From Blasia pusilla (taxonomy: Eukaryota), in assembly GCA_050084515.1 (NCBI GenBank), contig CM114271.1, positions 17,484,001 to 17,548,000 on the forward strand: DNA of 64,000 bases. The letters run 5' to 3'. The notes below the pieces were generated by a model that was not told the origin of the DNA, made no database searches, and was given only the letters and a program-made list of their open reading frames with translations. Position numbers and translations under genes: made by a program. Positions 1-36,900 of the stretch are shown here, piece by piece (the stretch's first letter is position 1; every line of letters starts with the position of its first letter).

Positions 1-315
1 CCCTAACTATCATGACTCACATCTCTAGATCACTAAGAGCAAAAATATCATGTGCTTATGTAATCCCATCATTAGTCGCCTTCTTATCACCCATATCAAA
101 GACATAAGTCTAGATCTTTGACTACCTATGGTAAAGATCGGCGCTCCGTCAAAGGTAAAGGTCCTAAAAATCCAAACTCTACGTATAACCTAAATCCATG
201 ATTGACAACACATGCAACTGTGGAGTCAGAGTATTAAAGTATGTCCGGACCCGATCACATACCATATACCTAGCAACAAATTTTTCCCTTTAGTTTTCAT
301 GCATTGCCATTGATA

Positions 316-3069
316 TTATATATGGAGCAAGTTGTACGTCCGCAACAATAGAGCCCACCTTGCAAGCTTCCCTATAAGCTTGCTAGACTCCATCAACCAA
401 TTAAGTGGTTGATGGAGATCCCCATAAAAAATGTTTCTATCATGTCTGGATATCCCTGACTCGTGCATAAAAGTGGAACATTCTCTATTGATGTGAGTTT
501 TAGTACATCGTTTTTCCAAAGCCTTGATCCAAAAATTTTGACCATCCCCTCGCAAATGAATGAATAATCGATCGTCAAAAAAAGTGTCCATGAGATCGTG
601 CATACGACCCAACATTCACCGCTGGTCATATCCATGACCACACTTGATGCACACTTGCCATCACTTATGCTTGAATCGCCTAATAATGGGACGTTCTCCA
701 AAATGTAGGACTAGAATATATATATATATATATATAGGTAGGTAGGTAGTCTACACGTGTCAAAGAACTCGTAACATCTTGTAAAACATAGTTAACCTTG
801 GGTTCTGAAGACCCTCTATTGGCTAAACAAATTGACCTTAACATGATCATTGCCATTTCCAAATAAATCATATCAATGTTATCCAGATTCTCCATCCCCA
901 AAAAAAAAAAAAAAAAAAAATACATTATGATATCCCTTAACAATAGAAATTGAAAATAAATGAGGATACTATTGGAGTAGTCTTGACACATGGTGAAATG
1001 AGACTCTTTGTGCAATCTTATCTCCCTCAACGTACAAGTATTTTTGTAATCCCAATTCGACCTACAACAATATAGCCAATGTAGAACTAATCCCTCTAAA
1101 GAGATCTAGTACACGAACATCCTCCTCGGGATATTTCCACTTGATCCATGCAATGTCCTAGGCTATCATTGTCTCCACTCCTAGAGCATGTGGTACCTCT
1201 AATTGATCTCGCTCTAGAGCATAGGCTCGGTTGCAATCCTGCCTCACGAGCTTGTCTACGCTCCTCCGTAAGTTGATACTCGTCCCCCATAATATTAAAG
1301 AATTATTGCCAATAGGTGAAGTCACACTTGTCATTGCATGCCACCCCTTGAGACTAACCTCAACAAGAGTATCCTCTACATTGAGGAGTAATAAGAAGAG
1401 AGGAGGGAGCAGAGAGGAAGATATTTGCAACTCCTAGGGCTCTATTGGTTTGAAGAGAGTTTTTGTCAAGTTGGAGGGAGGAAAATTTTGACGAGCACCC
1501 ATAGCAAGTTTTTTTTTTTGGTGGTGAAAAAAATGCAAAATTTTCACCTTTTCAATGTAGCGGAATCCAACGGGTTGCTTTTTAGGAGACAAAGGGACCC
1601 ATCTAATTTCGAAGGGTTTCTTTTTAGGTATCAAAGCAACCCATTGGATTCTGACAAGTAGCTTTTTGTGCATCAAAGAAAACATTTTTTTTTAAAATTA
1701 CATTAAAAAAAAACCCAACCCATGCTCCCCCTCTTCCCTCCAAAATTTTTTTTTTTGCAACCCATCAAAAATCTGATGGATTGCACCAAGTAACCTCTCT
1801 TCAAAAAAATCCCCAAAAAAATCACTCACTTCTTATCCATAATCTTCATGTTTTTTGATTTTTTTTCCTTTTTTTAAGAGAGATTCTCCTCTCTTCCTCT
1901 CTTTCTGCCAAAATAGCATCCCTCCTCTGATGGAGATTCCCCTCTAGTTAATCTCCACAATAAGCTACTATTTTTGTTGTCAACTCTCACAGTGAATCGT
2001 CAAGTCTACCATCATGTTGCACGAGTAGCTTATTGGCTTGTCCCTCATCTAACTGTCAGCATAGTCGATAGGAGGTTGCCTCCTCCCAAAAGTCCAGTGT
2101 GAAACCTAGGGGTGGTTACCCCTACCAAAACATCATAAGACTTGACCGATATTACCATCACTCATATTTGTACCATTGCACTATCTATAGGATGGAGGGG
2201 CTAAATTCTCACTACAATCTTCTCATGCGTCATATACTATGTCAGGGAAGTGTCTCCCAATAATATTTGAATTTTGAAAGGATATGGTGTAATCTCACAC
2301 TTCTACAACCTTATCACTACTGATCTCACCTTCCCCAATATCAAGAATTGTGCTTCTGAATCAAGTAGCACTCGTTCCAATCTAGACTCCAATCTAGATG
2401 GACCAACCACTTGGAATATCCGAGCTTGGTTGTCCAAGATGACAACTCCTAGTGAGACGCCAACACGATCTCTTTTTGGTCTAGCTAGAAACTCTACCAC
2501 TCTAGCCATTGATGCATGGCAACTCTTTGTTGACCTCCTTATGAGATGTCACACATGTACCTACTCCAAGGATTCATCTACAACATCTCTTGTGCATACC
2601 TCTGCACAAGATCAACCAACACTATTTGTCTCACAGAGGGTTGCCCCAACCTCAAAATCTCAGTTTGTCAAACTCAATATATCACAAAATCCTTGGCTTA
2701 AAATAGTGGAAGTTTGCTGAAAGTCATCATCACCTCTAACAATGTGCTAGTACTAGGTTATGTTGAATGTTGTGTAGGCATGGTAGACATACTCGTCTTA
2801 TCCGCTCCTCTCAATATATGCATTGTGACAACAACCTCAGACAAAACCACTTTGCAATGGGCTTGTAGGGACTATAGTCAGGGTTCAAAGAGCTTCTTCG
2901 AAAGTAAATGATTGAGGAAGCCTAACCTACTGTCCTTGTTGGAGATCCAACTCCAAATTTTTCGTTGTGGCCCAAAATCCCCCATCGCATCTCTCATAAC
3001 CAATACATCTACATCCACTTGTATGGTATTGTAGATAAATCCCATGCTTCATAGATCTCTTGCCATATC
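316..3069 (-). mobile_element. Decayed copy of the methyltransferase-carrying Gypsy-type retrotransposon family (protease, DNMT and RNase H remnants)
   Basis: Minus-strand remnants match the intact-layout element at 27-36 kb: protease RVLLDSEAQFLILGK (in ORF 2303-2509), DNMT motif I DVRVLDLFRGIS (1086-1121), motif VI ENVPLLGD (~678-701), RNase H end HQPLNWLMESSKLIGKLARWALLL (~330-410). RT appears deleted. Confidence 0.8.
716..735. repeat. (TA)n microsatellite
   Basis: Direct reading of the TA dinucleotide run. Confidence 0.9.
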
Positions 3070-4700: not shown

Positions 4701-4882
4701 ATATGATTCACCACGGAGTACCAAGCGCTTTGCGATATGGTAGAGCTTGCGCGACTACGGCAGACCGGGTCCCATATGCGTCTCGCAACCTCTCCCCCAC
4801 TCTCCGCTGAAATTTGATCATAAATCTGCTTCAACTTGTCGGTCCTCACCCCCTGGTGTTTCCTCCCAACTCTTGGGAGAAA

Positions 4883-5101
4883 TCAAGAGTTGGGAGGAAA
4901 CACCGCACTATAGATAGTGGCCGCCACTATGCCCATAACAGTACTCACCATATCATACATCACATGCCCAGCAAGGGACACATATCTTGGAGACCAATAT
5001 AGTCTCCATCCCTCAATCTCCTCCTCATGGAGAATCCAAAACTCGTGATAGTCATCTATGGGAGGGCCCTCCATGTGTTGAAATATTTTCTTCCATGCCA
5101 T
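4883..5101 (-). pseudogene. gag remnant of the DNMT-Gypsy family
   Basis: MAWKKIFQHMEGPPIDDYHEFWILHEEEIEGWRLYWSPRYVSL aligns by eye with LAWKGLFQHLEGPPMDDYREFRKDHVAEIEAWRQYWSPGYVSI of ORF 29015-29788. Confidence 0.85.
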
Positions 5102-6917: not shown

Positions 6918-8467
6918 TATCCTTATATTAGACATGATTTACTTTGAGCTTTGGCACATATCAAAAGGTGAATGATTAGGGAAATGAAAGAGATTGAATG
7001 ACCGTGTGCTCTCTAAAGAAGGGAGGTACATAATCACATAATCGAAGGGATCTCTCTTAATGAAAATGGATGGATCCTCCCAATGTTCCATTCATTCCTC
7101 CTCCCATCCAACCCTTGCACAACATTTTAAAAATAAATAAGTTCATAAGGCTATCTGGAATGAAAGAGTGTCCTAAGGGAAAAAAAATTGTTTTGGGGGT
7201 TGATTTTGACAAAATCAACCCCCTAAATTTATGATCGAATCGCCCCCTCATGTGTTTAATATGTACACGTGACTTGCCCCCACCTTCACAACACGTCACC
7301 ACTCTTACTTGCATATCACAACGAAAATGAGGTTGCATAGATTCATTTTGGGTCTTTGGAGTTATCTGCACATAAACTCATGGCTCTTGTATATTTTTTC
7401 TTTCAACTATACGTTCGTGGATGAGTTTATGCGTTCGAAGACACTCGCTTCGCTCGACGAGGTGAACCAAAAACCCCTACAGACTTAGGAAGGTTCCAAA
7501 CTCCCTCCATGGAATGTGACTTGCAACACCCGGTTACTACGGGATCAAATGAGTCACGGGCTTGAAGTGGCGATCTAATGAAATGAAAAATTTGGAGGCA
7601 ATCGTGTAGCACAGTTCATAATGGGGGTGACTAATTCACCTCATGACGACGGGAAGTAATTTATCTATACCCCGTTCTCCGTGTTGACATGTAGGCTTTT
7701 AAGCTTTTCGTGTTGACACGTGTACAAGAATATTTAATTAAGGGCTAGCAAGAAGAAGTAAAACGGGGAGTAATATCACGACTCATCGGGCCAGGCGCCC
7801 GATGTAATGTCCAGCGATTAGTTGGTCAACGTAGGGACGAGGGGAGTCATTGACGTCGGCGGTAACGGTAGTCTAGTCAGTGAGGGGTGAGGGTCGTCAG
7901 CATCGGGTTCCGTGCGGAGCTTTGGATCAAGAGAGTCGACGTAAATGATGATTGGTTGGGGTCTGTTAACTCTGCTCGTTTGAACTTTGAAGGTGGGTAG
8001 GTAGTTCACGGACTCAGGAGTAGTCCTTCCGAACTTGTCTACTCATCGGCGGGCGGGAAATAAAATTTCTTGGCTGCCCGTTTCGGCGAGAATGACGGGT
8101 CCGGTCTTTGAGGATCGTGTACCGGATCCACGCGTGCAGTCACTCATCAATAGTGCTCATGTCAGACAGGGAGTTGCGTAGGTGGTGGTGGGACTGGTGG
8201 CTCAAGTAAAAACGGAATTTCGGGTGGTTTTCGCGAGGGAGACGACCGGTTACACCAGTCGGTGATTAACTGCCACCGTGACGACCGGGGCAGGCAAAAC
8301 CACCCAACCCGGTGCCCACATTATTGCCACCAGCCTACGTGGTCGGATGAACGTGGAGTGACGTAACGGCTCATTTATAGGGGCAATCTGTGAATATTGG
8401 CGACGGGATTTTGTGACGGGAAATGTATATGACTATAGGAGAGTGTTGATTTAATAATAATTAAGAT

Positions 8468-19494: not shown

Positions 19495-19676
19495 ACTCAT
19501 TGGACACCGAAACTGCTATATTTGGTACTCATGCAAAGTAGGAAAACTTAATTTTGGTTAATTAGTTAAGCGCGATTATCTCAACTATGATTAGTTAATC
19601 ACGGTTAGTCTAACTCAAGACTATGGTTAGGATTAGGGGTAGGTTTGCTTGTACATATCCTATATAATTGAGAAGG
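19495..19676 (+). repeat. Fragment of the Copia LTR family found at 54340-59679 (opposite orientation)
   Basis: TTAGTCTAACTCAAGACTATGGTTAGG...TGTACATATCCTATATAATTGAGAAGG is the reverse complement of sequence in 54445-54620. Confidence 0.8.
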
Positions 19677-21517
19677 AGACCATCCTCCATTCATTGAAGA
19701 ATTTTGATCTCCATGGTGACGTGTGAGTGTAAGAGTCGTATCCCTCCATTTATGCTTCTTTAGCAGTTTTCTACAAGGGGAAATTAAAATGGAGTGTAGA
19801 TCAACAAGTTGAGTATGAGAGTCTATGGGAGGCATTCACGTGCATAAAATGGCGAATCATTGCCACTAATGCATGGAAGGATAGAGGCATAAGCATTCTT
19901 ATATTGGTATGAGGATCTGGATTAAGAGATGTTGAGGAAAGTTTGGGATGCGATGTCGCTTCATAACCACAAAGTCCACATTGAAGATGGTCTTCCAATT
20001 TTCAAAGGAGATTGAGCTCAACATGAGTAAGGATCATATTATGACCACATGTCTTAAGTTCTTGCGTGTACTTCTCCTCGATTCATCTTGAAGAAAACCC
20101 AATCTTGAGCTTTGCAAGTGCAAGACTTATATTGAGTCCCAAAGACTCAACCGCTTGTGTATTTTGTAGGTAGTTGAGAAGCCGCAAAGCGCTAATTGGG
20201 TCAATTCTACCAAGTGCATGCCATCTCCCTCTAAAGCCTCTCCCCAAGCCTCAACCAATCCCCACAAGTTGCTTGCGTATACCGGAGTGCCTTGGTTAAT
20301 TCCTCAAGGTGCGTCCCCTAGCTCAAACTTGAAACACGGCCAAAACATGCATCATAATTAGTTTTTGGTTCAAGGACTTGAGCGGGTAGAGAGGACGAGA
20401 AGAATTTCCCCCCCCATAAGTACTTGTGGGATTCTCTATGGGAACTCCACTTTCCCCATTGTCCCTCTCGGGCCTTTGATTTTCGCCCTCAACTCAAACA
20501 TGGTAAGCGACCTGCGGATCCGAGTTTGACTAGTTAATTATCCATCAAGATGCCTTGGCGGAGGCTTCATGCTGCTTATCCAACTCTCGGCTCCACAAAT
20601 GCATCGTGGATCTTGGACCCGCATTTCATATGTCTCATGGTTAGTGCCCATCTTGACTCCCCATTTGGTGTCTCATGGTTGTCTTTCCGCCCTTTCTGTT
20701 TCATGACAAATCTTATTTCATCTTGCCCATCTTGAATTGATTACTCATATGCTCCTTGCTTCTTGCCCTTGATCGACTTGGCGCTTGGCTCCAAGGTCTC
20801 AAATTGCATTCCTTGCCTCTATCCTAGCTTGCGAGTATCCATATCCCTTTCTCATCTAAGGCTAGTTACAAGACACCTACACATCTCCCCTAGCCTTAGT
20901 CTTGTGGTTGGTTTGGCCACCTTTCTAGTCTTGCGACTAGCTAACCTAGGTTTCAACTTTGGTAGATCGTACCAAGGTCTTTCCTCCTTAGGCCTGCAAT
21001 CATAACTCACTCCTTGTTTCCCTGCTAACGTGGGAGCCATAGACTTAGCTATTTAGGATGCCATGGGATTCCCACTAGAGTGGATGGGGAGGTGGAGTCA
21101 AAATAGACCTACACAGGCACCACCATAGATGTAGTGTGATCATTATGATCGATATGGTTATACGAGGGATAGGTGTTTCAAGCTTTTCCTAGAGGCACGT
21201 CCAAAGGTAGGCAAAGGTCATGGGGGCGGTTGAGTGGGTGGAGATCAAGGAGTGTATGGTCATGGTGATCATGGTAGAGTTCCACCAACAGTCAAAGGAG
21301 ATGGAGGACATGCATTTGTGGCTCATGTAGAGGATGCTACTATGGTGACTCATGACATTGTGAGAATGGCTCAGCCCTAGGGAGGTGGAGTCAAGATAGA
21401 TCTACATGAGAGGATTGATGGGCGTCAGGTCAGGGTTCCCTATAGCAATAATTCACATTTTGTGAGGCACTACACATCCCATCGATGGTGCTTTGATGAG
21501 TTTTTGGTACCCATAGG

Positions 21518-21604
21518 TAGAACATGTACGTTGAATCCTATTACAACTTAGATGGAGCCATAGAACATGTACGTTGACTCCTATTACAACTTAGATGGAG
21601 CCAT
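21518..21604. repeat. 43-bp tandem duplication
   Basis: TAGAACATGTACGTTGAATCCTATTACAACTTAGATGGAGCCA repeated twice with minor differences. Confidence 0.9.
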
Positions 21605-22204
21605 TTCATTAGGGATAGCCATCCTGGTATAACAGGATCCCATTGTTCTTTGCCACATATGGACTTGGCAACGGTAGAAGTTGGACCAAAAATGGTGTTT
21701 CGATTGGTTGCTATGATATGTGAGTGGATACCTAGAGATTACTACTTTTCTTGTGCAAGGTTGCACACGGATAAAGTGCATATCGATGGACATTCCCATA
21801 TCTACAGACTTATCTTCATCCCTAGGACGGAAATGTTCATATGGGCTAAGGTACCTTAGCATGCCCAACCCCACAACGTAGACCTAGGCTTGGCTAACCC
21901 ACAGCTAGTCTAGGACCCCATTCACCATTTCTTGCCATCCGTTTTGTAGCTGCATGGTGGGCCTGCAATGGGCCAATCCGGGCTTAGTGTGGTCCGGTGC
22001 AGGCTTAGTGCGCGCCGTGCATGGGCTTCATGCAGGCTAGGCGAGGGCTCATAGCCCGCACACCCATCCAATCTCTAACTGCCTCAAGCTCCCTTAATCT
22101 TAGACCGCACTCATTCCTACGTCCAAAGCCCACACGGGCCACTAGGGTACACAAAAAAATTGGGCATAGGACCTGTTAGGCATTTTCGTTTCCATGAAAC
22201 CTTG

Positions 22205-23480
22205 CTCATATGGAAGTAGTGTTTGAGGATGTGGTGGAAAACTACTCGGAGTAGGTGCTTGGGACATCCCTCACTCATTCTTCGTAGATTACGGCTACTA
22301 GGTTTGTTGATATGCTAACTAGACACACCAATGAGCAAGACATGATGACACTAGGTATGATGTTATTGGACAACCAAAGCGAGGTGTTCTCCTTGGTTAG
22401 CCCTACAAGTATGTTGTACCAACAATAGTGTGTGCTACTTGATTCGGAAGCATAACCCTTGATGTTAGGGAAGGCAACATTTAGCATTGGAGTTACAAAA
22501 ATATGATATTGAGCCATGTCCCTTCAAGATACATACCTCCATTGGGGGTATGTCACTCACATAGTTCATGACTCGAAAGGAGCTACTTGTCATACTCCAT
22601 CTAGAGCATTCTTTAGATAGTGCGATTGCACGTAGTCATACAATTATGACACCAAACTAATCGTACAATGTTATACCACCTTGATTACATCCTTAATTTT
22701 TGGGAGGAGACGGTTTCTTATCACCCAAGATGGCGATTAGGTGACAATTGGGTAAACATCTACCCATGCTATTTGCAAGGCGTGATGGTGGTGGTAGTCT
22801 AAGAGGTCAAACAGTAACCACGTTGGAAACATTCATATGTAGTTTTAGTATTAAGATGTCATATGCATAGATGCTTTGTTTACAAACAAAGCATCTATGC
22901 ATATGACATCTTGATACGAGATATTCCCATAAAGAGATATGCCATATTGGATATCTCTTCCCATGGTATGAAGACCTCTTCACTATTTTGGGGTATGAGC
23001 GTTGACTTGTTGAGGAGTGTAGATGAGCTCATGAGCCAAGCGTGGAGTTGTGCATCCATTTTGGAGTTAATAGAGTTAAATGATTGTCGAACTCTTCAAG
23101 GGGATACTTAAAACTCTTGGATACCATACATGTTGTGTGCCAATTTTTATATGAGGGTGTGAGAGTGCTTAATCTCTTCAAAGGGATAAGCATAAGGTTA
23201 GTTGAAGTACTGTAGGTTGACATACAAATGCAATTATACCTTTATGTTGAGAGAGATGAAATTGCATGCCGATTCTTATTTTTCTATGTGGATAGTACAA
23301 GTGATCCAAGCTTGGAAATTGCATATTCGAGCTTAAGATGTATGTTAAAGAGATTTGCAAGGGATGCAACCACCATATTGGTGTGTGATGGTTGATTTAG
23401 AGGGTGGCACATGTCGTCTCTGATCCCCTCTATTGATGCAATTCCTATAGGATAGTGGTTATATCCCAGATGTCTTTAAG
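22205..23480 (+). mobile_element. Second decayed copy of the DNMT-Gypsy family (protease and DNMT motif I remnants)
   Basis: VLLDSEA*PLMLGKA at ~22432-22477; EGVRVLNLFKG at ~23153-23186 at the same relative position as in the 27-36 kb element. Confidence 0.7.
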
Positions 23481-26400
23481 GTAGTAGAACATTTAATGTC
23501 GATATGATGTGTGCTACTTGGAGTTAGGGAACCCAATTTCCAATTAGGGGGTTAATTGTGTGGTCTTGGTGTACATGCATGCCGGTACTTTATTATGTGT
23601 GTGGATCTATCCGTATGTTGGGAAGATCGGTGATGTTTGGGGTTTAGATGTGATTAACGATGTGGATTATGTAGCCACGTGTATGTTGTCACGTCTTATT
23701 TATGCAACCTCAAGAAGTTTTCCTTTATCTCTTGAGGTTATCCTCTAATCTCCTTCAAAGGACCAAAGGTGCTCTACCAAAACTTATCAATCTATCCTAT
23801 AAGACGTGACATTGTTTAGGGCTATTGTGATGGAAAGATCTATTTTGGCTCTTCCTAAGTGTATAAAAGGTGGGGAGATGGCTCTCACTGACTATGTTTA
23901 TCATGTTGAGCCTTCACAACACTCATCCTTTTAGGTTTTGGTTGGATCTTGAGTGTTAAAGTATGGATTCCCTTATCACATAGGATTGACATGGCTTGAT
24001 GACTATACGTAGATTTGAGACTGCGTTTGGCCATGTGAGCCATTTTTACTTCAAATTTACATGAGAAAGATAGATAGGGCATGGGGATTTATTTTTTTGG
24101 TAGGTGGGTAGTTGAGTTGCCTGGTTGGAGAGCCCCTTCAAGATATATTGATAGGATTTTGTGTTTGTTTATGCTCAAAAGGCCATACGTAGAAGCGCTC
24201 CCATTTTTCACAAAATTTTGCTAGTGGCGGATGGATATAAGGAAGAAGCAAAGTTTTGTGGAGCATTACTTGAGTATAGCACATAGGGAGAAAATGTTAG
24301 AAATTTGGGAGAAAATGTTAGAAATTTGGGAGTAGTGAAGGATAGACATAAAATTTAGGGCAAGGCTAACCCTTGCTACCAACACAAGGGCTATCAAGTA
24401 AGGCCAATCAAAGATGCAAAAGCACAATCGAAAAAAGAAAGGGTATGAGGATGCAAGGCTATAATAGTGTAGATGAAGGCATAACCTTGCGGAGTTAGTC
24501 GAGAGTGGCTTTAGATAGATGTCTTCAAGTAGGAATGGACGAAAGGGCATGCTTATGGTAGCTGGAGGTTAAGTGCGTCTCCATAGCGGCGTCAACAAAC
24601 ACATGCATACAGTCTCATTAGCAAGCTTGATAGAGTTATTGGAGCACATGGAAGGAAGTGGAGCCATATATGTCGTTAGGCTCCATGAAGTATGTAGTAG
24701 ATAGTGGGCTACATGCATCATTGGAGCATCCGATTTGGTACGTGACCTACCATAGTAGAGGGATCAACCACGTACATGGCCTGCAAGATGGTAGTAGGTT
24801 GATTCGAGGGTAGATCTTGAGTATTGATTGTTGTATGACTCAACTTGATTGTGACCCAATCTTGTGATGTGAGTGGTCATGATTTGTTATGAGATTTTCC
24901 TATGACGTAGGTTGTAAATTGTCTCCCAACTTACTAGTACAGTGGTGAGTTGTGTGTAGATGAGTGATAAGCACCAACAATCCATATTGGAGTGCTAAAG
25001 ATGGTGATGCACATGCTACTATTAACAATGAGTCCAAAATTATAAATGTGAGATTGGACTTGTTGTTTGAGGAGGTTTTTACATCGTCCAATGTAGTTAT
25101 TGGACCGTGTAGAGGAGTGATGGTGCACACGTTCAAGTTATCGATTTGAGTCCTATTCCCATGTTTGTCTCTTCTCATTGAGGGTATTGGGTGGAGCATA
25201 TGATAGATAGGTGTAGTCATGGTGTTGAATGAAGACTCTTTTTCTGTGTAGCATGTGGGTATAGAGCGGTTGCCCAAGTAGGGGTCTTGTGTATGACTCA
25301 ATATTATTATTAGCTTAGGTGAGCTTGTACGGGAGGCTCAGGGTGAGCTCACAGGTTTATCGTCATCAGATTTCTTTAGCATAGGTGAGCTTGTGAGTAG
25401 TGAGGGAGATTGAGGGTGAGTATATGGGCTTGAGCCTGTGAGGAAGGGTTGTAATAAACATTCTTCCAAGGTTTGAAAAAGGGTAGTTTGAGTAGTAGGG
25501 GAGGAGTTATGAGGCATGAAGTGAGGTGTTGAGGGATTTTGAGTGAGGAACCACCTGATCCTTAGTTGGATTTTAACCATTGGATAGCGAGTCTAGTGAC
25601 ATGATCATAGATGGAAATAGTGGCAAGTGGAGAGATATGGATAACGTGAGCCATAAGGGAATTTCTTGAATGTGGTAGGTACCAAAAAAATTGATGATTT
25701 CAACCAAGAATTTGACATGTAATATGATTTCTAAGAAATACAAGCCTTGACGCAATTTAACCCTTTCATGGGATGAAGGGTTTGTTACAACATTTGTAGG
25801 AACTTCCAATGGATGATTTTTGTGAATTATGCTCTTTATATGATGTAGAGATTGATGGTTGGAGGGTGTATTGGGCTCCATATAATTTCTCTATCGGTGG
25901 TTATGAGACTTATGATGGGATACTGAGAGCGACTATACCTACACCAAGATTGAGGACCAGATGGAGATGATGTCATATATGGTAGGGGATGCCTAAGACC
26001 TCTAATACTAGTAGGCCACCTAGTTTCAACCCAATAATGGAGTTCTTTTGAGAGTTGGGGAGGAACTACGAAGGCATGTTGATCAATAAGTTGAAGTTTC
26101 CACAAGAATTTTAAGAGAGATCATGTGAGAGTCCATTGGAGGCATTCATGTACATATGAAGGCTAATCATTGCTACTCATTGAATGATAGATGCACATGA
26201 AGTTCAATCTTGGTATGGGATTTTGGACCGAGACAACATTGCATCTCAAACAATGGAGTTCTTTTGGGATGTAATTTTGTTGTACAACATCACATAGCCC
26301 ATATTGAAAGTGGTCTTCAAGTCTTCCAAGAGGATTGGGCTCAACATGAATGAGAAGCATGTAATGACCACAAGATTTCCACTAGAGTCAACATATTTTG

Positions 26401-27141
26401 ATAGCCCCATAGGTGCCCCAACATGCATTCGTACTACGAAAGAGATTTGGTGTGTCGAGAGAGCACAATGGGTATCGTGAGCCCATGAGGCAACAACCCA
26501 TACAAACATATTTTGACTAATAAGGGTTGGGTTTGTTTTTGGACATTTGGTGGATCCCACAGTCATAGGGACTAGAGACAACATGGGCGCCTCACATTGC
26601 TCAAGAGCCAATTTTGATGGTACCATTGTAGTTATAGTATGATCATTGTTATAAGTATGGTCATATGAGAGATACGTTTATTTTCATAAGATACACCCAT
26701 ATGGAGGCCAAGGTCCTAAGAGTGGTAGAGTTGGTGGAGACAGAGGAGGTTTCAGCGATGGTGGTAGAGCTCCACCACCTATTAGAGGGGATGGAAGATG
26801 TGCACTCGATGTATTGCTCCTCACTTGGATCAATCAATTGGAGCACATGATTATTGCCATGACAATGATGTAGCCAATGCTCGGATCCGAGCATTGGATG
26901 TATCATTGTCACGTAGCCGAGGCCATCCACTTCACCTTTAGCCTCCACAACATATCAAGATACAGGGGTTTATTTCACTAATATAGGATCTATATGTAGT
27001 GTGACATAGGTTTGTATTTCCACTTTGATGACTCAAGACAATGTGAGAGTAATCAAACCATGGGGAGGTGGAATGGAATTAGACCCACATTAGTGGAATG
27101 ACAATCGCAAGCGATAGGCTAGGATGCACTTCATACACCAT

Positions 27142-27507
27142 TGTCATGACCATACGGATTATGTCGTAGAGTATGGTGTGCTGGTAGAGGCCATTCCTTA
27201 TGTAGGACCGTAGTGGCTTGGTAGAGATGTGGTTCCATACATAGGGTTGGGGGTTACTTACTTGGGGGTGACTTTCCTAGTAGGGCCCGCTCTTAGGTTG
27301 GAGGATATAAGGTGGCTTGCCCTCAAAGAACAGTCAGTTCTTTGAGTTGAGCCTGTTGCGTTGGGAGTTAGCCTTGGTAGTGAGTAGAGCTCTTGGCTAT
27401 GGTGTTTCCCGCAAGCTTCGACCTAGATTCTCCCATCGTGGAGTGGGTTTGGCTCGATTGTATGTGATTGTAAACGTGTTTTATGACAATAGTTCTTTCA
27501 CGGATTT
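27142..27507 (+). repeat. Terminal repeat A1 (copy of A2 at 35687-36053)
   Basis: Near-identical to A2 by eye (about 8 differing sites); contains TATAA at 27306-27310. Confidence 0.95.
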
Positions 27508-27508
27508 C

Positions 27509-27521
27509 ACTCAAAGAACTG
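27509..27521 (+). promoter_or_regulatory. Putative self-priming primer-binding site
   Basis: ACTCAAAGAACTG is the exact reverse complement of CAGTTCTTTGAGT (27335-27347), which starts 29 nt after the TATAA; no TGG-type tRNA PBS follows the repeat. Confidence 0.7.
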
Positions 27522-29014
27522 GAGTAGATCGATGGTAGCTTCGATTGTAGATCAGTAGGATCTGGTTAGGGCTGATTGTGTACTCAGCCGTGGATGTTCG
27601 TGGCTTGTGGCCTATGTTGGAGGTATGAATCAGGTGCGTGGTTGGTTGGGAAAGAAGCGCCTTGCTGAGAGCTTTCCAATGCGCTGTAGATCGCCGGATT
27701 TCGTCAAGGGAGTTGGAAGTTATCAAGCATTGAAGATTCTGGTCGTGTTCGACAGTTTTCTGATGTGGAGAGCTTGGAGTGCGGAAGCTGTGTTGAAGTT
27801 CATCCAGATCGGGTGAGAGGTTCCTGTTGCTACTCGTATTGTGATCTCCTGTGAATCTATCTGCTCGAGTGCGTGGAGCGTTGCGGATTTCTGCGTGCAT
27901 GAAACTTGGCGGAAGCGCTGTCGGATTTGCGGTTGTAGAGGTGTATGGACAGCAAGTTTGTCTGATTTTTAGCCCGGAGTACGGAGCTCGGTTGTAGCTG
28001 AGTTTTTGTGGGGAGATAGCTATGGTGGTCAATTGAATTCTGATCGAAACAGATTTGATTTCGGTCACGTATTTGTGAAGTAATTTTGATCGAAATTTCG
28101 CGGACTAGCTCAAGGTCCGGCTATGGTGGGCAAATGGATCGGAGGGGCTGGTTGGTTGGTGACTCGTTCATTGTTGGAGACGCCTATCCCGTTGGGGGCG
28201 CCCTGGTTGGACTTCTCTCCATAGCGAAGCATGGCGAAGCGTGGCGAACGGGGCGATAGGGGCATGTCTCGGCGTTTCGAGGCTTCGAGGCAACTCGTGG
28301 TAGCTCGGGGCGAGTGGGCGTGAGAGGCGGAGTAAGGAGCAAGGAGCAAGCAAGCAAGCTTGCTTGCTTGGGCGTGAGGCAATTTTTGCAGGATTTGGGA
28401 TTTGAGTTTTGCATAACTGGTCACACATCTTTGGGCTATTCTGCCTGGAGGACGCTTAACTGCTGAGTTCTTAACTATGCCAGTGTACAGACTGTTGTAG
28501 CTCATTTGGTGCTGTTCGGAGATGTGTTGGGTGCTTTATGCATCTCAGGTTTTTGGTTGATGTACCTCTAGCGCATAGTACGGTGTAGCCTCTCCATACA
28601 AGTGATATTTTCAGGTGCTGCGAGTTCGACTAGCACGTCATCGACCCGCGGCGGAGTAGCTATTGCGTTAGAATTGTGTGGTGGGTTTTGTGGATTCAGG
28701 GGGCACCACGTTTGGTGGATTGTGTTACCTTGATTTCCATTTGCGGTTGGAGGGTTGTCGTTGGACTTCCTGTGTCTGGATCCCCTCCATCGTGCTTCTT
28801 GCTTGCGCGCCCATTGTTAGGGTTGACGCTGATTTCCAGAGTAGTGTAACTCCTGTGTGCTACCGGTAGTGAGGCTGGAGGGATGACGAGTAGATTGTGG
28901 GAGACTTCTTGTGGTGATGACAAGTTAGGTTGCCTACACCCATAGCTAGTAGAGCTAGAATAGTATAGCGACATCGACGTCACTTGGTAATTTGGTGGTG
29001 GTGCGGCATCGGCG

Positions 29015-29788
29015 TTGGTCATCACGGAGCTGTCGGGTGGTCTGGTTGGGGACCGTGGTGCGGACAGTGGTGGTTTCACACGGAGTGGATTTACGTATCG
29101 GCTACCTTTTCCACTTCCGACGGTTGATGAAGAGGAGGACCAGGGTGTTCCAAACACCGAGTCTTCTACGTTGTTATCGAGTGTTGCAGCTCCATTGATT
29201 TGGGACATGGACGGTGGATATGGGGCCATGAAGGGCCCACGACGATACTCGGGTGCAGTGGGTACCATTGAGTTGGAGGACTTCATGCAGGAGTTTGATA
29301 CGTGGTGTGATATGCAGATGTTGCGGAACGCCACGTTGTTTACATCCTTCTTGGCTTGGAAGGGGTTGTTTCAGCACTTGGAAGGACCACCCATGGATGA
29401 TTACCGTGAGTTTAGGAAGGACCATGTTGCTGAGATTGAGGCATGGAGACAATATTGGTCTCCAGGCTATGTGTCTATCACCCATGGTGGTATTGGTAGT
29501 AGTGCTCCTACTATGCCAGCCAGCCCGACGTTGAGTGGTACGAGTACGAGCCGGAGTGGGGGTACCAATGGAGGTACTAGTGGGGGTACTAGTGGAGGTG
29601 GTAGAGGTGGTAGGGGTGGTAGAGGTGGACCAGTGGTTGGAGAGCCTACGGTGGCTACCCCTACCACTACGACAGAGTCAGCTATGGTTGCCAGGATTGA
29701 GCAGTTGGAGCAGAAGTTGGCTACTATGGTCGGTATCCAAGATAGATCAGGTTCGGGAGCAGGGCTTCCACCTCTTATGGAGGGATGA
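29015..29788 (+). CDS. gag-like ORF of the DNMT-Gypsy element (start uncertain)
   Basis: 257-aa ORF with RYSGAVGTIELEDFMQEFDTWCD...FQHLEGPPMDDYREF, upstream of the protease; a homolog lies at 4883-5101. Confidence 0.7.
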   Translation: MVITELSGGLVGDRGADSGGFTRSGFTYRLPFPLPTVDEEEDQGVPNTESSTLLSSVAAPLIWDMDGGYGAMKGPRRYSGAVGTIELEDFMQEFDTWCDMQMLRNATLFTSFLAWKGLFQHLEGPPMDDYREFRKDHVAEIEAWRQYWSPGYVSITHGGIGSSAPTMPASPTLSGTSTSRSGGTNGGTSGGTSGGGRGGRGGRGGPVVGEPTVATPTTTTESAMVARIEQLEQKLATMVGIQDRSGSGAGLPPLMEG

Positions 29789-30289
29789 TCTCTCTTATAT
29801 GGCGAGTGCAAAGACAAAGGTTGAGGCATCGCCTACGAAGATTAGAGGAGCCACTCGGCGTCGAGCCACTCGGCGTCGAGCCACGTGGTGCTCTGTGGGA
29901 GTTGGACCCATAGAGGGGTGAGGCAGCTAGGCTTCCCGGTCATTCTTGTTATCGAGGTGCTTAGGACTCCATCCATGGTTCCTACGCAACCTATTGAGCC
30001 GAGTGGGGATCGAGGCATCTACATCGCGTGTAGTAGACACGGATGCAAAGATCAATGCAAGATTGCGGATGGCAACTTCAGTGTTGGGATCCCCATTGTT
30101 TTCGACCACGGAGCGATGGCTTTAGGAGTTGACTTAGCTCTGTATTTCGATTAGCGACCACGTTGTGTGAACGTGGGGGTATTCTTCGCTACACGTGTTG
30201 AGGTGGATGAGGGTGTTGCGGTGGAGTGACCCTCTATGTCGGGAGTAGCATTGAGTACCGGTGCTACTTGGCGGCGAGCGGCGAAGATG

Positions 30290-30740
30290 GATGCATTACC
30301 GGCCCGGCCAGCCATTGATCGTGAGAGGCTTACACTGGTGTATGTATGTTGGACAACCGGAGTGGGATCTTCCGATTGGTGAGTCCTACAAGACAGTGTA
30401 TAGACCAGATAGAGTCTTGTTAGACTCGGTGCCCAACCTTTGATGTTGGGAAAGGCATATTGGTTTGGGTATTCGGAGGTCGAGCTTGAGCCTTGCCCCA
30501 TTCAGATTCAAACATCACTTGGAGGAGCCAATGATAGGTCTCAATTCATGACACGGGAGAAGTTTTTGCATGCAGTTGAGACCGGATGATGCGAATGATA
30601 GCTCCCGGTTGGGAGTATCTGCATGTAGTCACATCGGCCGAGTCGTATGATGTACTAGTTGGAGGAGCGATTGTACCCGATGGGTTTTCAGATGGATTCT
30701 TCGGATCGAGACAGCGTCTTATAGACCTGGTTGGCAGTCC
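30290..30740 (+). pseudogene. Retroviral-type aspartic protease (frameshifted)
   Basis: RVLLDS(G)AQPLMLGKA at ~30411-30457 and YDVLVGGA at ~30645-30670. Confidence 0.8.
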
Positions 30741-31124
30741 GGGGATGGACGTATGAGCCAAGTTCTGTGAGATTTATTTCGGGGCTCGACAAGGAGGGTC
30801 TTCCCAACAAGTGTTAGCATATGTGGCTGGTTTTAGTAGAGTAGTCACTTGGCCAGGAGACTTTTTGGAGGGTAATGTTTCTACTATGGATTCTCTGCGC
30901 ATGAGGAGGAAGAGGAGGTCCCTATTTTTGCAGCAGTGGCATCCTCATCGTTGGATGTGCCACTTTGGAGTTCAGCGGTGCACTACGGCAGAGGCGATCG
31001 CCTAGTGCAAGAGGCTTGGTGTGAGGTGTTATACCTCACGAGGAAGAGGAGGCCCCACGGCGGACTCCTACTTCTGGCCTGATTGGGTTATCCCCTTTGG
31101 ATACTACACCCATTGTATGGGTAT

Positions 31125-32085
31125 CCGCGAGGGCATTTGTGTGTTAGATCTCTTTGGTGGGATTAGGTTTGGTTTGGTTTGGCCGCAATGTTGCAGGCCG
31201 GTATTCTGTCTTGGAGATACGTGTATGTGGAGCGAGATGAGACGGCCTGAGAGAGTCTCATCCCGACATATTGGTCGATTGATGCGGGTATCCTGAGTTG
31301 TTGCCGCCATCAGCTATTCGTGGGTACCGGCGTGCTTTTACCATCACACATTGCATTGTTGGGGGCGCAGGACCTTGAGAGAATTGGTCTTGTGGATTTG
31401 GTGATTCTTTGGATGGCCATGTCGGGTCATACACGTCTTTGGTCGGGATGAGGGATTACATGACCCTAGGTCTCGATTGTTTTGGGAGATGTTACGGGTG
31501 TTACAACATCTTCAGGTTCATCAGGCACGTGCTCTAGCTTACATTCTGGAGAATGTTCCATTGTTGGGTGACACTCGGACTCGGATGATGGCGAGTGTTC
31601 ATGAGGTCTTGGTCTTGGATTGGACCAGCGGTGTTGTTGGATGCTGTGCGAGTTGGCTCAGCGTGCACATCGTCCACGCTTGTGGTGGACAAACTTGTTG
31701 CCTAGGATGGTTCTACGTCGAGCATATGATGCAGTGCAGCGGGATCCTCGCCTTACAGTGGATAGTATCTTGGATACTGGGCGACTTTCCCAAGTGGTGA
31801 GGGTTATTGATCGGTCACCCATGGGTGGTGAACCGTGTGGGCGACCTAGGATGGCACTACCCACATTTGTGAGTTTTCCTCGTCACATGCCTACAGGGAA
31901 GGTGGTCTGGGGCTTGTATGGGATTCTCATGTGCGACAGTTGGTAGAGCCTAACGCTGATGAGAGAGAGCGTGCGATGGGATTTGCTACTGGTGTGATAG
32001 TGGTTGCTTCTATTTCTGAGGCTTCACGACGTCATGTGTTGGGTCAAGGCCATGGACCTGAATTGTTTGACTTGGATTTTGAGTC
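31125..32085 (+). pseudogene. C5 cytosine DNA methyltransferase domain, DNMT3-like, within pol (frameshifted)
   Basis: Ordered motifs: I VLDLFGGI (31141-31164), IV GWPC (31411-31422), VI ILENVP (~31543-31560), VIII AHRPRLWWTNL (~31665-31697), IX ERERAMGF (~31960-31984), X RRHVLGQ-AMD (~32027-32057). Confidence 0.9.
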
Positions 32086-32449
32086 TTGGTATGGCCGAGC
32101 GTCGACTTCGGACTATGTCTGTGGGTCTTCCACCCCTTGTAATGAGCTCGATGGCTAGGGACGGTAGAGGCATCGGTGGGGCGAGGAGAGTAGTATTTTG
32201 CATCCTTGGAGTAGATGGGATGTAATGGTGGGCATGTGGAGTTGGTTGCTCATCTTTGGTGGAGGAGTTATTTGCTCAGATGATGGTGTAGCTAAGGGTG
32301 TATCATCTTGTGAGGGGGTTGCGTAGCAGCCAATGGCATCATCCTCTCCCTCTAGTATGCCAGTGGAGGAGACTTGGGAGCCATTACTTGGGCCCAAGCT
32401 TATGGGAGGTGAGAAACGACGCTGACCGCGGTTCCTACGTGCTTATAGG

Positions 32450-33400
32450 AGTTGTTTTGCCTTTAGCATGAAGGAGTTGGGTTCTCTGGTTGGACCCGGT
32501 ATACGGATTGATTTGGCTAGTGATACGCCAATCTTCCATCGTGCCTATCGATATAGTGATATGGAGAGGACTTGATTGAGTAGGACGTTGGACCTTTTGG
32601 AGGCTGGATTAGTGGAGTTGTCGCATGGAGAGTATGCATCGCCCACTTTGTCATGCCTGCTAAAAAAGGATATGTATGGCAACTACACGGATAGGCGGAT
32701 GTGTGGAGATTACCGTCCTATCAATCGGCAAACCAAGGCCGATAGGTATGCCATGCCTACACTGAGGAGATCTTTGATGTGGTGGGACAGCAAAGATTTT
32801 CAGTTTTTGGATCTTGAGCGGCAGATACCATCAATTGCCGATTCGGGAGAGTGACAAGGCCAAGACAACATTTTGGGGTGTCAACTCTCATGGCAAGGAT
32901 TGTTTGTACAGTGGAAATTCTTACCCTTTGGGTTGAAGAATGCACTGCCGAGTTTCAAAGAGTGATGGACAGGATCCTAGCAGGTTGGATTTTGTTCGGT
33001 GTTACATTGATGATATCTTGGTGTTGAGAACACGGTGGAGGAGCATCGATACATTTGCAGATGGTGTTTGAGCGGTTGAAAGCTCATGGTCTACGTTGCA
33101 TCCAGGAAAGTGTAAGTTCTTCCATGAGGATGTTGAGTACTTGGGTCATGTGATCTATCCGGTGGTTTGGGAGTTCAACAAGCAAAGGTGGAGGCTATTG
33201 CACTTATTCGCGTCCGATAGATGTGAGTAGAGTTCGAGCATTCATGGGATTGGCGAACTACTATCGGAGGTATGTGAAGGGATTTAGTGCTATGGCAAAG
33301 CCTTTGAACCAATTGCTGAAATCAGATCAAGAGTGGCATCGGGAGATGATCGGGAGAGAGCTTTTGTGGAGCTTAAGGCCAGTTGGTGGCGGCGCCTATC
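32450..33400 (+). pseudogene. Ty3/Gypsy reverse transcriptase (frameshifted)
   Basis: RRMCGDYRPINRQTKADRYAMP, LPFGLKNA, YIDD (33003-33014), VEYLGHVI, VRAFMGLANYYRRYVKGFSAMAKPL. Confidence 0.95.
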
Positions 33401-33419
33401 TTGAGGAGACCTATCGAGG

Positions 33420-33790
33420 GCGCCCATTTTAGTTACACACCGATTGGAGTAGGTTGGGACTTGGAGCGGTGTTGACACAACATGATGATGAGCACATGGA
33501 GTTTGTGGTGGCCTATGCAAGTCGTTCGAATAATGCAATGGAGTCGCGCTATAGTTCATATGAGGGAGAGTGCTTGGCGAGTGTGGGTGTGGCACACTTT
33601 AGGTGTTACTTGTTTGGCACCACAGTTTACCCTTGTTATTCTTGATCACCGGCCGCTCAAGTGGTTGATGGAGTCGGACAAGCTTACAGGAAGCTTGCAC
33701 GGTGGGCTCTTATCCCTCTGAGTATGACTTCCAGGTGGTACATAGACTGGAGTTGCCAACCTTGATCTTTGATGGGTTGAGTAGGAACCC
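33420..33790 (+). pseudogene. Ty3/Gypsy RNase H
   Basis: LHTDWSRLGLGAVLTQ...VVAYASRSNNAMESRYSSYEGECLA...DHRPLKWLM...DGLSR. Confidence 0.9.
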
Positions 33791-34149
33791 ATGTACTAGC
33801 CAAGAGGATACAAGCGGGGCTAGATGGCATGGCGAGGTTGATGAGAAGATGGTGCCAGGTTGGCATGCATCCGCCTTTTATGTTGGTTAGGTGGACTCTA
33901 GTATGGAGGACCACATGATATCTTACTCTAGTCGGAGGGTAGATGGCCACCTTGAGATCCTAAGGTTGGAGATGGTGGTGCGGATCAGCGTGATATTCAT
34001 GATGATGCGTTGGTGTTGGAGTTCCCTTGACCAAGAGGGTGCCAGGCATAGTGAGTGCCAAGGAGTGAGACCGTGTTCTTCAACGTGCTAAGAGGTATCG
34101 ATTGGAGGGAACACATATTCTCGCGTGTGGGAGGATGGTAGAGTACAGT

Positions 34150-35240
34150 AGTGCCACATTTGGCTCAGAGAGAGCGCATTGTGCGACATGCCCATGAGGA
34201 GTTGGGACATTTTGGGGTAAAGCGTCGTATAGCTTACTCCTTGGCCAATATTGGTGGCGTGGCATGCATACTCAGTGCAGTGATTGGTGTCACGTTGTAT
34301 GGTTTGTGACCGGGTGAGGGCATCATTTAATGCCCCTACACCACAATTACACCCCTTGCCTATTATGGGGTTGGGTTACCGTTGGAGTGTGGACTTTATG
34401 GATATTACCGTTGGTATGCGACATCATCGATATGTGTTGGTGATGGTGGAGCACTTCTCCAAGTGGATTGAGTTGGTGGCATTACCGGACAAGGCAAGTG
34501 AGGAACGGCGTATGCGTTTGGATAGAGTGCTTAGTCATTTTGGTGCACCGGTGAAGTCTTGACCGACCGGTCTGAGTTTCAAGGTGAGTTTCAGGTCTTG
34601 TGTGACAAGGCGTTGATTGATCATCGGACCACGTCTCGAGATCATCCGAGGCGGATGGTTTGGCTGGCGTGTGGTTGACGGTGAAGAGGGCATTGCGCAA
34701 GTATGGCCTCTGAAGGGCATCTTGGAGACTATGATATTCGATTACCATGGTTAGCCATGGGGTATAGGTTCGATCGCCAAGCATCCTTGGCTTCCTTCTC
34801 ACCTTATTTTACATTATCGGCCGAGATCCGGACTTGCCAAAGACAATTGTCGGGAGTCTAGTGAGGTGGTGAACCTTGATGACCCAGAGATGTGGATGAG
34901 GGTGTGTTCTCAGCGGGCGGAGCTCTTAGGAGAGTTATGCCAACAACCTTTGAGAATCTTGCCATTGCTCAACACAGGGGATACGTTGTGGTATGCAACC
35001 ATTCGGGGTGGAGGTTATCGACCATCGATTCAGAGGTTCCATGTGGGGACTATGTCTATTTGCAGCAGATTGCCCGACAACGTTGGATGTGACGGCAGCC
35101 GCACTATTTTCTGAGTCGTGAGGTGTTAGCTTCCGGAGTTCTCATGTTGGAGGGTCGTGATGGAGTTGTTTGGAAGGACCATGTGCGTAATTGTGCGTCA
35201 TGTCATCTTCCAAATGTGGATGGTATCTTGTTGACCCAAG
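34150..35240 (+). pseudogene. DDE integrase (HHCC zinc finger + rve core), frameshifted
   Basis: HAHEELGHFGVKR...CMVC, LHPLPIMGLGYRWSVDF, YVLVMVEHFSKWIELVAL, VLSHFGAP...LTD...EF, VKRALRK. Confidence 0.9.
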
Positions 35241-35268
35241 CTTAGCCATGATACGTGCTAGCTTGAGG

Positions 35269-35408
35269 TGCATGTTGTGTGGGTCTGCTGTAACGCGGCC
35301 CGTATGTTGGTGTGTGATCGGTGTTCTAGGGGTTGGCACATGATGTGTTTGACTCCACGTTTGGATGTTGTTCCTCTTTGGAAGGTGGGTTTGTCCTCGA
35401 TGTACTTA
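35269..35408 (+). pseudogene. C-terminal PHD finger of pol
   Basis: CMLCG...MLVCDRCSRGWHMMCLTPRLDVVP...GRWVCPRCT* gives the C4-H-C3 spacing across two frameshifts. Confidence 0.85.
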
Positions 35409-35570
35409 GGAGAGGTAGATGACTTGATCTTTGCATGATATGGATTACGGATGTGCGACTAACGATGGGGCAACCTAGCACCCGGCCTTCGATTCGGGCA
35501 CCCAAGAAGGTGTATAGCATGTAGTAGATGTATAGGGCTACCAGGAGTTAGAGGACCTAACCGCTTGATT

Positions 35571-35580
35571 AGGGGGCGAG
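35571..35580 (+). promoter_or_regulatory. Polypurine tract
   Basis: AGGGGGCGAG abutting the start of repeat B1. Confidence 0.65.
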
Positions 35581-36161
35581 TTGTGGTACACTTGCGTTTG
35601 TGGATACTCTCGTCTATGTTATGTATGTATGTGCGTATGGTATGTCGGCGATGTATGTTGTATGACGATGTGGATTCGACGACATTTGTCATGACCATAC
35701 GGATTATGTCGTAGAGTATGGTGTCTTTGGTAGAGGCCATTCCTTATGTAGGACCGTAGTGGCTTGGTAGAGATGTGGTTCCATATATAGGGTTGGGGGT
35801 TACTCACTTGGGGGTGACTTTCCTAGTAGGGCCCGCTCTTAGGTTGGAGGATATAAGGTGGATTGCCCTCAAAGAACAATCAGTTCTTTGAGTTGAGCTG
35901 CTATGCGTTGGGAGTTAGCCTTGGTAGTGAGTAGAGCTCTTGGCTATGGTGTTTCCATAAGCTTCGACCTAGATTCTCCCATCGTGGAGTGGGTTTGGCT
36001 CGATTGTATGTGATTGTAAACGTGTTTTATGACAATAGGTCTTTCACGGATTTAAGTTGTGGTACACTTGCGTTTGTGGATACTCTCATCTATGTTATGT
36101 ATGTAGGTGCGTATGGTATGTCAACGATGTATGTTGTATGACGATGTGGATTCGCACGACA
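35579..36161 (+). repeat. 3' composite repeat B1-(TT)-A2-(A)-B2
   Basis: B1 35579-35684 matches B2 36055-36161; A2 35687-36053 matches A1; the B1/A2 junction reads GACA-TT-TGTC. Confidence 0.95.
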
Positions 36162-36900
36162 CCATGGATGGTACCTAGACAGTTGGTTGTACATACTAAT
36201 GTTATGGATGCATCAATATCACAAGGAGTTGAAGAGAAAAATCCCATATCGGATTAGGTGGAGCCAAAATATATGGTGGAAAACTAAAATTTATTAAGCT
36301 CCATTTGTTTCCACCATGGACTTGGTGATGGTGGGAGTTGGGCTAGTTGAGGTATTTCAATTGGCTGGCACATTGTGTAAGCATGGATCGAGAGGTTACT
36401 ACCTCTTTGTATAGAGGTGGTTCACGAGGAGGTGGTGGACTAGCTTGCCCTTAGAGCATGTACTTGGGATGTTGCCTATTGGCTTGTGGCAAATTGTAAC
36501 TGCTAGGTTGATGGTAGATATGCCAAGTAGACTCACAATAGAATGAGCCAAGGTGAGATGAGGCTAGGTGTAGTGTTCTTGGAGAACTAGAGTGGGATGC
36601 TTTTCTTTATTTTTTTTGGGTTTTGTATACCCTAAGTATGGCATCTTACTTCATTCGGGAGCGTAACCCTTTATGTTAGGGAAGGCAGGAGTTTGGAGGT
36701 GGGGTTATGAAATTGAGAAATTGAGCCATGCCTCTTCCAAAGAAAGACCTACATAGGATGTGTTTCATCCACACAATTCATGAATCAAGAAGGGTTAGTT
36801 GTTCGAGTCCAACGAGAGTATGCACTACCAAGGATTGAGGCGTTGATATGGCTCCATTACAAATTTATTTTTTCCAAGAGCGATTACTTCACAAGTCCAT
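36162..36900 (+). mobile_element. Older decayed relative into which the 27-36 kb element inserted (continues left of 27141)
   Basis: Protease remnant ILLHSGA*PFMLGKA at ~36643-36688; the rejoined flanks resemble the decayed sequence near 21380-21500. Confidence 0.6.

Follow-up and report, generated by a model that had tools for sequence, protein, structure and literature searches.

In Tf1 of Schizosaccharomyces pombe, the sequence adjoining the 5′ LTR matches, as a complement over 11 nt, the first bases of the transcript made by the element itself, and both the RNA start and an RNase H cut between nucleotides 11 and 12 have been shown experimentally (as described in the main text of PMC7175516). 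Self-priming has likewise been predicted for Tj1 of S. japonicus (main text of PMC4600332). In plants, a working criterion of at least 10 bp, starting 0–5 bp past the 5′ LTR and complementary to the LTR, has been used, and self-priming has been predicted for the Tcn1 clade of mosses and club-mosses and for TAR Copia elements (Neumann et al. 2019, PMC6317226); the main text of that survey makes no mention of DNA methyltransferase (DNMT)-carrying Gypsy elements among the self-primers. Such elements are known from Klebsormidium nitens, where KnitGypsy-Dnmt3 combines Gypsy domains with a Dnmt3 in pol and a DIRS-style repeat order, A-coding-B-A-B (de Mendoza et al. 2018, PMC5890265). The terms ‘primer binding’, ‘PBS’ and ‘priming’ have 0 occurrences in the main text of that paper. 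Self-priming is an accepted alternative to tRNA priming that is still sparsely documented.

Here we describe an element that shares features with both groups. It lies in a stretch of 64 kb, referred to as the window. We put at roughly 0.65 the probability that positions 27509–27521 are the primer-binding site of a DNMT-carrying Ty3/Gypsy-type element whose primer would be the 5′ end of its own transcript.

Domains, repeats and insertion of the element

The element spans 27142–36161 (9020 bp) and is built around direct repeats in the order A1-internal-B1-A2-B2 (Table 1). Identity is 95.9% between A1 and A2 (35687–36053) and 95.3% between B1 and B2 (36055–36161), and the spacer between B1 and A2 reads TT in the present copy and GC in other copies. 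Bryophyte proteins aligned to the window bear out the domain order gag, DNMT, RT, integrase, and a search with the DNMT piece returned 25 related proteins at E ≤ 0.001, the named ones being from Marchantia polymorpha and Sphagnum. The forward reading frames are broken, which indicates that the present copy is not itself active; the family is nevertheless highly abundant, with 30078 contigs of run X1 aligning to the 1.2 kb from 26900 to 28100. Chromoviruses carry a chromodomain 3′ of the integrase core. The 62 forward ORF pieces of this degenerate copy gave no chromodomain match; the segment 3′ of the integrase core gave a weak PHD match, and a search for longer relatives of that piece returned 0 proteins at E ≤ 0.001. 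The sequence marks the element as a degenerate Ty3/Gypsy retrotransposon whose pol includes a C5 DNA methyltransferase, and by domain content and repeat layout we place it with the Gypsy-Dnmt3 type. Indeed it shares with KnitGypsy-Dnmt3 the Gypsy domain composition, the C5 DNMT inside pol and the A-coding-B-A-B arrangement; it differs in that copies are few in K. nitens (main text of PMC5890265) whilst the present family is very abundant, in that its protein relatives come from Marchantia and Sphagnum, and in that its DNMT is assigned to the C5 level.

Table 1. Positions of features in the window, for the main element, the older related element O and a third related element.
Feature	Position	Strand	Remarks
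Target-site duplication CCAT, 5′ copy	27138..27141	+	paralogous empty site has a single CCAT
Repeat A1	27142..27509	+	368 bp, TGTCATG...GGATTTCA; promoter part of U3, R, U5
TATAA	27306..27310	+	sole TATAA of repeat A
Upstream hairpin arm CTCAAAGAAC	27322..27331	+	identical to core of primer-binding site; upstream of predicted transcript start
Putative self-primer CAGTTCTTTGAGT	27335..27347	+	predicted RNA 5′ end
Putative primer-binding site ACTCAAAGAACTG	27509..27521	+	from last base of repeat A1
Leader and broken gag-pol	27522..35566	+	Pfam; tblastn with bryophyte proteins
gag	about 29207..29503	+	78% identity to first 99 residues of P0012
C5 DNMT	about 31031..32236	+	PF00145 at 31405–31797, 24.5 bits (cut-off 22)
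RT	about 31901..32761	+	tblastn with bryophyte proteins
RNase H, RT-linked type (PF17919)	33433..33718	+	Pfam
Integrase zinc finger and core	34142..34722	+	H2C2 34142–34314; rve 34284–34559 (Pfam)
PHD, weak match	35262..35435	+	24.7 bits (cut-off 24); 3′ of integrase core
Polypurine-like tract GATTAGGGGGCGA	35567..35579	+	immediately 5′ of repeat B1
Repeat B1	35580..35686	+	GTTGTGG...ACGACA, plus 2-nt spacer ahead of A2
Repeat A2	35687..36055	+	own copy of hairpin and primer sequence at 35868–35893
Repeat B2	36056..36161	+	ends CACGACA, the right end of the integrated unit
Target-site duplication CCAT, 3′ copy	36162..36165	+	4 bp
O, internal end	23303..23449
O, polypurine core	23545..23553		followed by B-like part
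O, A-like repeat	from 23687
O, self-primer analogue CTATGTTTATCATGT	23892..23906	+	starts 30 nt past TATAAAA (23862)
O, site analogue ACATGAGAAAGATAG	24059..24073	+	complementary to 23892–23906 at 13/15 positions; followed by leader
O, gag	from about 25728
Third element, gag	about 5098..4775	−
Third element, DNMT	about 1382..672	−
Third element, integrase	about 414..158	−

The limits of the inserted unit can be set to the base. Both flanks align to the second copy of an older relative, O (21.1–22.5 kb), in which the empty site near 21479 reads ...ACACATCCCAT/CGATGGTG with one CCAT; since CCAT stands on both sides of the element, the inserted unit is exactly 27142–36161. It starts with TGTCATG and ends with CACGACA (TG..CA), an inverted repeat at 6 of the 7 bases. 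The unit as a whole therefore reads as one insertion that bears the footprint of an integrase and not that of a recombinase. The simpler view that the LTR is B+A, with a truncated 5′ LTR and a stray B past the 3′ LTR, was discarded on account of this single TG..CA insertion with its duplication.

O encloses the main element; its gag-like sequence reaches the left flank (25728–26393) and picks up again past the right one, at 36298–36684, at the expected distance. O itself (21072–26393 and 36166–36684) consists of two copies in head-to-tail order with one B-A repeat at their junction, a tandem array of the kind expected from recombination with circular or linear cDNA. The core of the polypurine-like tract, ATTAGGGGG, is also found ahead of the B-like part of O (23545–23553).

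A third related element lies on the minus strand at about 158–5100; it is rearranged and is without the RT region, and ahead of it, at 7215–7232, stand a polypurine-like AAATTTAGGGGGTTG and a hairpin of 18 nt. Neither an LTR nor a primer site was located for it; its best complement, of 10 nt with 1 mismatch, was set aside. The window also contains a Ty1/Copia element (54339–59679, minus strand) whose LTRs are about 92% alike and carry CCTAACCCTAACC runs and an internal inverted duplication; it has an RT/RNase H ORF of 354 aa (54629–55693) and a gag ORF (57811–58431), and a related LTR fragment is present at about 19490–19790. Finally, an uninterrupted frame of 548 aa at 45760–47406 has a GxGxGG dinucleotide-binding start; by eye we take it to resemble a GMC-type oxidoreductase or long-chain alcohol oxidase, and presumably it is a host gene.

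Complementarity at the edge of repeat A1

The first-pass annotation had reported that a 13-nt stretch just after repeat A1 is complementary to one within the repeat, and the pair was recovered in full, ACTCAAAGAACTG (27509–27521) being the perfect reverse complement of CAGTTCTTTGAGT (27335–27347). When 26900–27700 was searched for inverted repeats, these arms (13 nt, 100% complementary, 161 nt between them) formed the only inverted pair of at least 11 nt. The placement just after A1 holds in that the site begins at the last base of A1 (27509), with the qualification that A1 is only a part of the LTR as reverse transcription would define it. The spacing that had been given for the upstream segment was also correct, its first base lying 29 nt past TATAA (27306–27310), and the sequence TCAGTTC (27334–27340) around the putative primer start is one we take to be Inr-like. 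So too was the absence of a TGG of the tRNA type: the first TGG past the repeat end is at 27520–27522, and there is none 0–5 nt downstream. The local hairpin that had been described forms between CTCAAAGAAC (27322–27331) and 27337–27346, and the segment 27315–27355 folds at −16.1 kcal/mol. On the plus strand of the element this 10-mer occurs in 3 places (27322, 27509 and 35868).

To judge the pair against chance, mononucleotide shuffles of the 368-nt repeat were scored for complements whose start was offset by −1 to +5 relative to the end of the repeat; at least 13 nt were reached in 1 of 20000 shuffles and at least 10 nt in 93 of 20000, and on these counts the complementarity is real and not a matter of chance. 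By the criterion used for predicted self-primers (PMC6317226), the element qualifies as one, with a complementarity that runs over 13 nt without a mismatch from the last base of A1. In this respect, and in having a host that its protein relatives suggest is a plant of bryophyte type, the element is like the Tcn1 and TAR elements, from which it differs in that those (chromoviruses and Copia, respectively) carry ordinary LTRs.

The right-hand end of A also bears on where a primer would sit. The A2/B2 joint reads TTT(C>A)A/GTTGTGG in the present copy and TTTCA/GTTGTGGTA in run X7; A2 and A1 share their last base, and A2 runs on into B2 and not into CTCAAAG. We read this joint as the end of U5 joined to the first base past the polypurine tract. 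With 27509 as the last base of A in either copy, the cDNA end is placed at 27509/27510, and with it the primer 3′ end. No tRNA CCA end is compatible with a primer that finishes in ...GAG(U), and the TGG at 27520 cannot begin the primer site because CTCAAAGAAC would then belong to the repeat, which it does not. Tracts of the tRNA type can be recognised in the same DNA: immediately past the 5′ LTR of the Ty1/Copia element stands TGGTATCAAAGC, which we take to be a site of the initiator-tRNA type, and tRNA-type sites are thus plainly visible in the host genome where they are present.

Conservation of the pairing, on which the first-pass annotation had made its reading depend, was observed in contigs of three organisms, in which both segments and the decoy arm are unchanged whilst U3 drifts. 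In a run X7 contig covering 27142–27446 there are 14 differences, all within 27175–27321 and none in 27322–27446. A run X6 contig has 0 differences over 27281–27365, another from the same run has 9 over 27480–27825 with none in 27494–27624, and a second run X7 contig (27480–27600) has 2, at 27489 and 27493. Amongst the best-supported 40 of 137 variant places in four runs, none falls in 27322–27421 or 27494–27530. Since both segments are invariant, there is no covariation within the family. One low-depth contig of run X1 (3.85) joins 27309 to 27364 with GTGT between them; this is a family variant without the hairpin and the self-primer segment, presumably a dead copy. A contig of run X12, possibly an RNA run, covers 27324–27604 and so has its left end close to the predicted start; it was considered as evidence for the transcript start and set aside, contig ends being uninformative and other X12 contigs spanning U3. 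Searches for more copies gave 4 loci, 0 of them related to the window by blastn, in a metagenome scan with an 18-mer from R, no match in a protein-guided scan of viral contigs with P0024, and 22 stretches, 0 confirmed, in a protein-guided scan of genome contigs with P0012.

Variation in the letters of the pair is found in the older relative. In three of three MAFFT runs the main element's primer site is matched by 24059–24073 of O, where the A-like repeat ends, and a segment complementary to 24059–24073 lies downstream of a TATAAAA (Table 1). With the comparison anchored at the primer 3′ end and the site 5′ end, and with one degenerate O copy to compare, the 13 pairs divide into 6 in which both partners differ yet remain complementary, 5 without any change and 2 in which pairing is lost; in shuffles, the O score was reached anywhere in the two search windows in 3 of 300. 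MAFFT, unlike our own anchoring, sets the primer side of O 14 nt further downstream, and for that reason pair counting between the families on the basis of MAFFT was dropped. The minimum free energy (MFE) fold of O uses a neighbouring register, 23892–23902 with 24073–24084, and not the one with 13/15 matches. O appears to have the same geometry with different letters, which lends moderate support to self-priming. The start of its A-like repeat (23687–23811) contains a perfect 13-nt inverted repeat of its own, TGTCACGTCTTAT/ATAAGACGTGACA. A further promoter candidate, TATAAGGTGG at 19390, was rejected, as it is leader sequence of the O family beside the Copia LTR fragment.

Folding predictions place the pair in a larger structure. 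Both the MFE and the centroid fold of 27336–27560 pair nucleotides 1–12 with 27509–27520, closing the R-U5 domain, and when the RNA is taken to start at 27335/6 and to stop at 27530 or 27560, the pair probabilities of the helix are 0.57–1.0. With a longer 3′ context the helix probability is 0.09–0.14 (27336–27700) or 0.63–0.90 (27335–27700), and the local hairpin competes in any transcript that includes 27322–27331; with a start no later than 27322 and an end at 27700 it prevails, with a probability of 0.96–1.0. The total fold energy is ordinary (z = −1.35).

Self-priming and other accounts of the pair

If the element primes itself, RNA polymerase II would initiate about 29–30 nt past TATAA, at C27335 or A27336, and the first 12–13 nt of the RNA would fold back onto 27509–27521. 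RNase H would then cleave behind these first 12–13 nt, as in Tf1, and the freed 3′ OH would be extended through U5 and R, to be followed by ordinary strand transfers with the polypurine tract at 35567–35579. The upstream arm (27322–27331), being a copy of the site, could mask the primer sequence only in RNA that contains the arm, namely longer transcripts or the 3′ repeat; transcription of the 3′ repeat always includes the hairpin, which may thereby keep the 3′ primer copy off the site. The likeness to Tf1 and Tf2 of S. pombe lies in the lack of a tRNA site and in a site that matches the element's own RNA start, predicted here to do so over 12–13 nt. Experiment has established where the Tf1 RNA starts and where RNase H cuts it, whereas here both are predicted from the DNA; the present element adds to the Tf1 plan the DNMT domain, the A-int-B-A-B repeats and the decoy-like hairpin arm. 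The first-pass claim that the element self-primes in the manner of Tf1 is retained, as probable, for the mechanism only, where geometry, conservation, the repeat boundary, the absence of a site for a tRNA end and the diverged relative all speak for it; it does not extend to membership in the Tf1/sushi lineage, no chromodomain having been found in the 62 ORF pieces of this degenerate copy.

Several other accounts of the pair have to be weighed against self-priming. Ty5 is a user of a half-tRNA primer. A host RNA, be it an internal tRNA fragment (half-tRNA) or a small RNA, might act here in the same capacity, the copy in the LTR being incidental or regulatory; the 3′ end of such a primer would match CCAGTTCTTTGAG(T), complementary to 27509–27521. 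Half-tRNA primers are indeed known in plants (1/2 tRNA-Met and 1/2 tRNA-Ile), but in the main text of the survey that describes them they are reported only for Ty1/copia lineages (PMC6317226). It would also have to be explained why the element itself carries a perfect 13-nt copy of such a primer, at precisely 29 nt past TATAA, and why O differs in its letters on both sides of the pair, which a fixed host RNA would not permit. A search of 27100–27700 against Rfam returned no family, with one chance-level match to a miRNA hairpin (E = 9.6), and the 64-kb window contains 0 tRNA genes. Priming by a host RNA is considered unlikely on these grounds. The pairing might instead be a long-range structural helix, such as a stem between U5 and the leader or a packaging/translation switch, that exposes or masks the region, with priming taking place in some other way. 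In the predicted folds the helix encloses the entire R-U5 domain, which would suit such a role, as would the competing local hairpin, a feature of RNA switches; no alternative candidate primer site adjoins the repeat end, however, and the cDNA end deduced from the A2/B2 joint falls exactly at the edge of the helix, as is predicted for a primer, so that a purely structural role seems quite improbable.

The repeat order raises another alternative. DIRS-order elements depend on a tyrosine recombinase and insert without a target duplication. In replication of this kind the complementarity would bring cDNA ends together, the 3′ end of the minus strand annealing to the copy of the site, and would help to build a circular or permuted form instead of initiating reverse transcription; the A-int-B-A-B repeats are indeed those of DIRS-order elements (main text of PMC5890265), the A1-internal-B1-A2-B2 layout being shared with the Ngaro and PAT types. 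The present element departs from these in its DDE integrase, of which the zinc finger and core (H2C2 and rve) were found whilst none of the 62 ORF pieces matched a tyrosine recombinase (PF00589), in its TG..CA ends and in its 4-bp target duplication; moreover, the polypurine tract and the primer site occupy the positions that are classical for LTR elements. We regard DIRS-like replication as a distinctly remote prospect. As to the match being functionless, whether by chance or as a by-product of a duplicated motif, the three plus-strand occurrences of CTCAAAGAAC would offer local duplication as a source; set against this are the single shuffle in 20000 that reached at least 13 nt, the invariance of both segments in three organisms beside 14 differences in U3 and the recurrence of the geometry with other letters in O, and this explanation is scarcely credible. 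Self-priming from the transcript's own 5′ end thus remains the preferred reading.

A possible permuted integration product and its meaning

In LTR elements, the stretch from the polypurine tract through to R is U3. As the tract lies directly 5′ of B1, reverse transcription would make LTRs of the form B+A, and the layout of the integrated unit would then be a permutation of the cDNA. The B/A joint, as seen in runs X6 and X7, reads CACGACA-GC-TGTCATG, a near-palindrome in which CA and TG stand two bases apart, and loose ends in the same two runs show ...CACGACAGC ahead of 27142; the two spacer bases are missing at the ends of the integrated unit. Retroviral integrases have been reported to cleave the palindromic LTR-LTR junctions of 2-LTR circles (PMC1905944, PMC1180852). 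CACGACA-GC-TGTCATG resembles such an uncleaved pair of integrase recognition ends, with the difference that the palindrome here lies inside the LTR as defined by reverse transcription (B+A) and not at the joint between cDNA ends, and that its cleavage is something we infer.

A tentative model for the family, and by extension for the KnitGypsy-Dnmt3 type, is that these elements are self-primed and that their normal integration substrate is not linear cDNA but end-joined cDNA, in the form of a two-LTR circle or concatemer; we hold this to be possible though doubtful. The integrase would open the joined cDNA at the internal near-palindrome, with loss of GC, and would make the 4-bp duplication, whilst the second palindrome would stay uncut as the B1/A2 joint. 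The integrated unit would accordingly be a two-LTR cDNA with its ends joined, opened at one B/A palindrome, and the hairpin arm, with its copy of the primer site, would serve as a decoy that holds the 3′ copy of the primer sequence off the site.

The priming mode itself is already known and the novelty in that regard is modest. As far as searches of the literature (main texts) go, what is new is probable self-priming in the DNMT-carrying Gypsy type, together with this reading of the A-int-B-A-B arrangement. A self-priming signature in such an element would extend this mode of priming beyond the Tf1/sushi-Tcn1 and TAR lineages (as covered in the main text of PMC6317226). The site would fix the exact end of the cDNA, and with that end in place A-int-B-A-B becomes readable as a permuted two-LTR product; if true, an end-joined substrate would account for split repeats of the DIRS type in an element that carries an integrase, and the odd layout described from Klebsormidium in 2018, in a main text from which priming is absent, becomes a testable replication model. 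The DNMT-carrying Gypsy type described from Klebsormidium is also present, at high copy number, in a bryophyte-like host, and with a primer that is independent of tRNA, silencing of primer sites by tRNA fragments would not touch the family.
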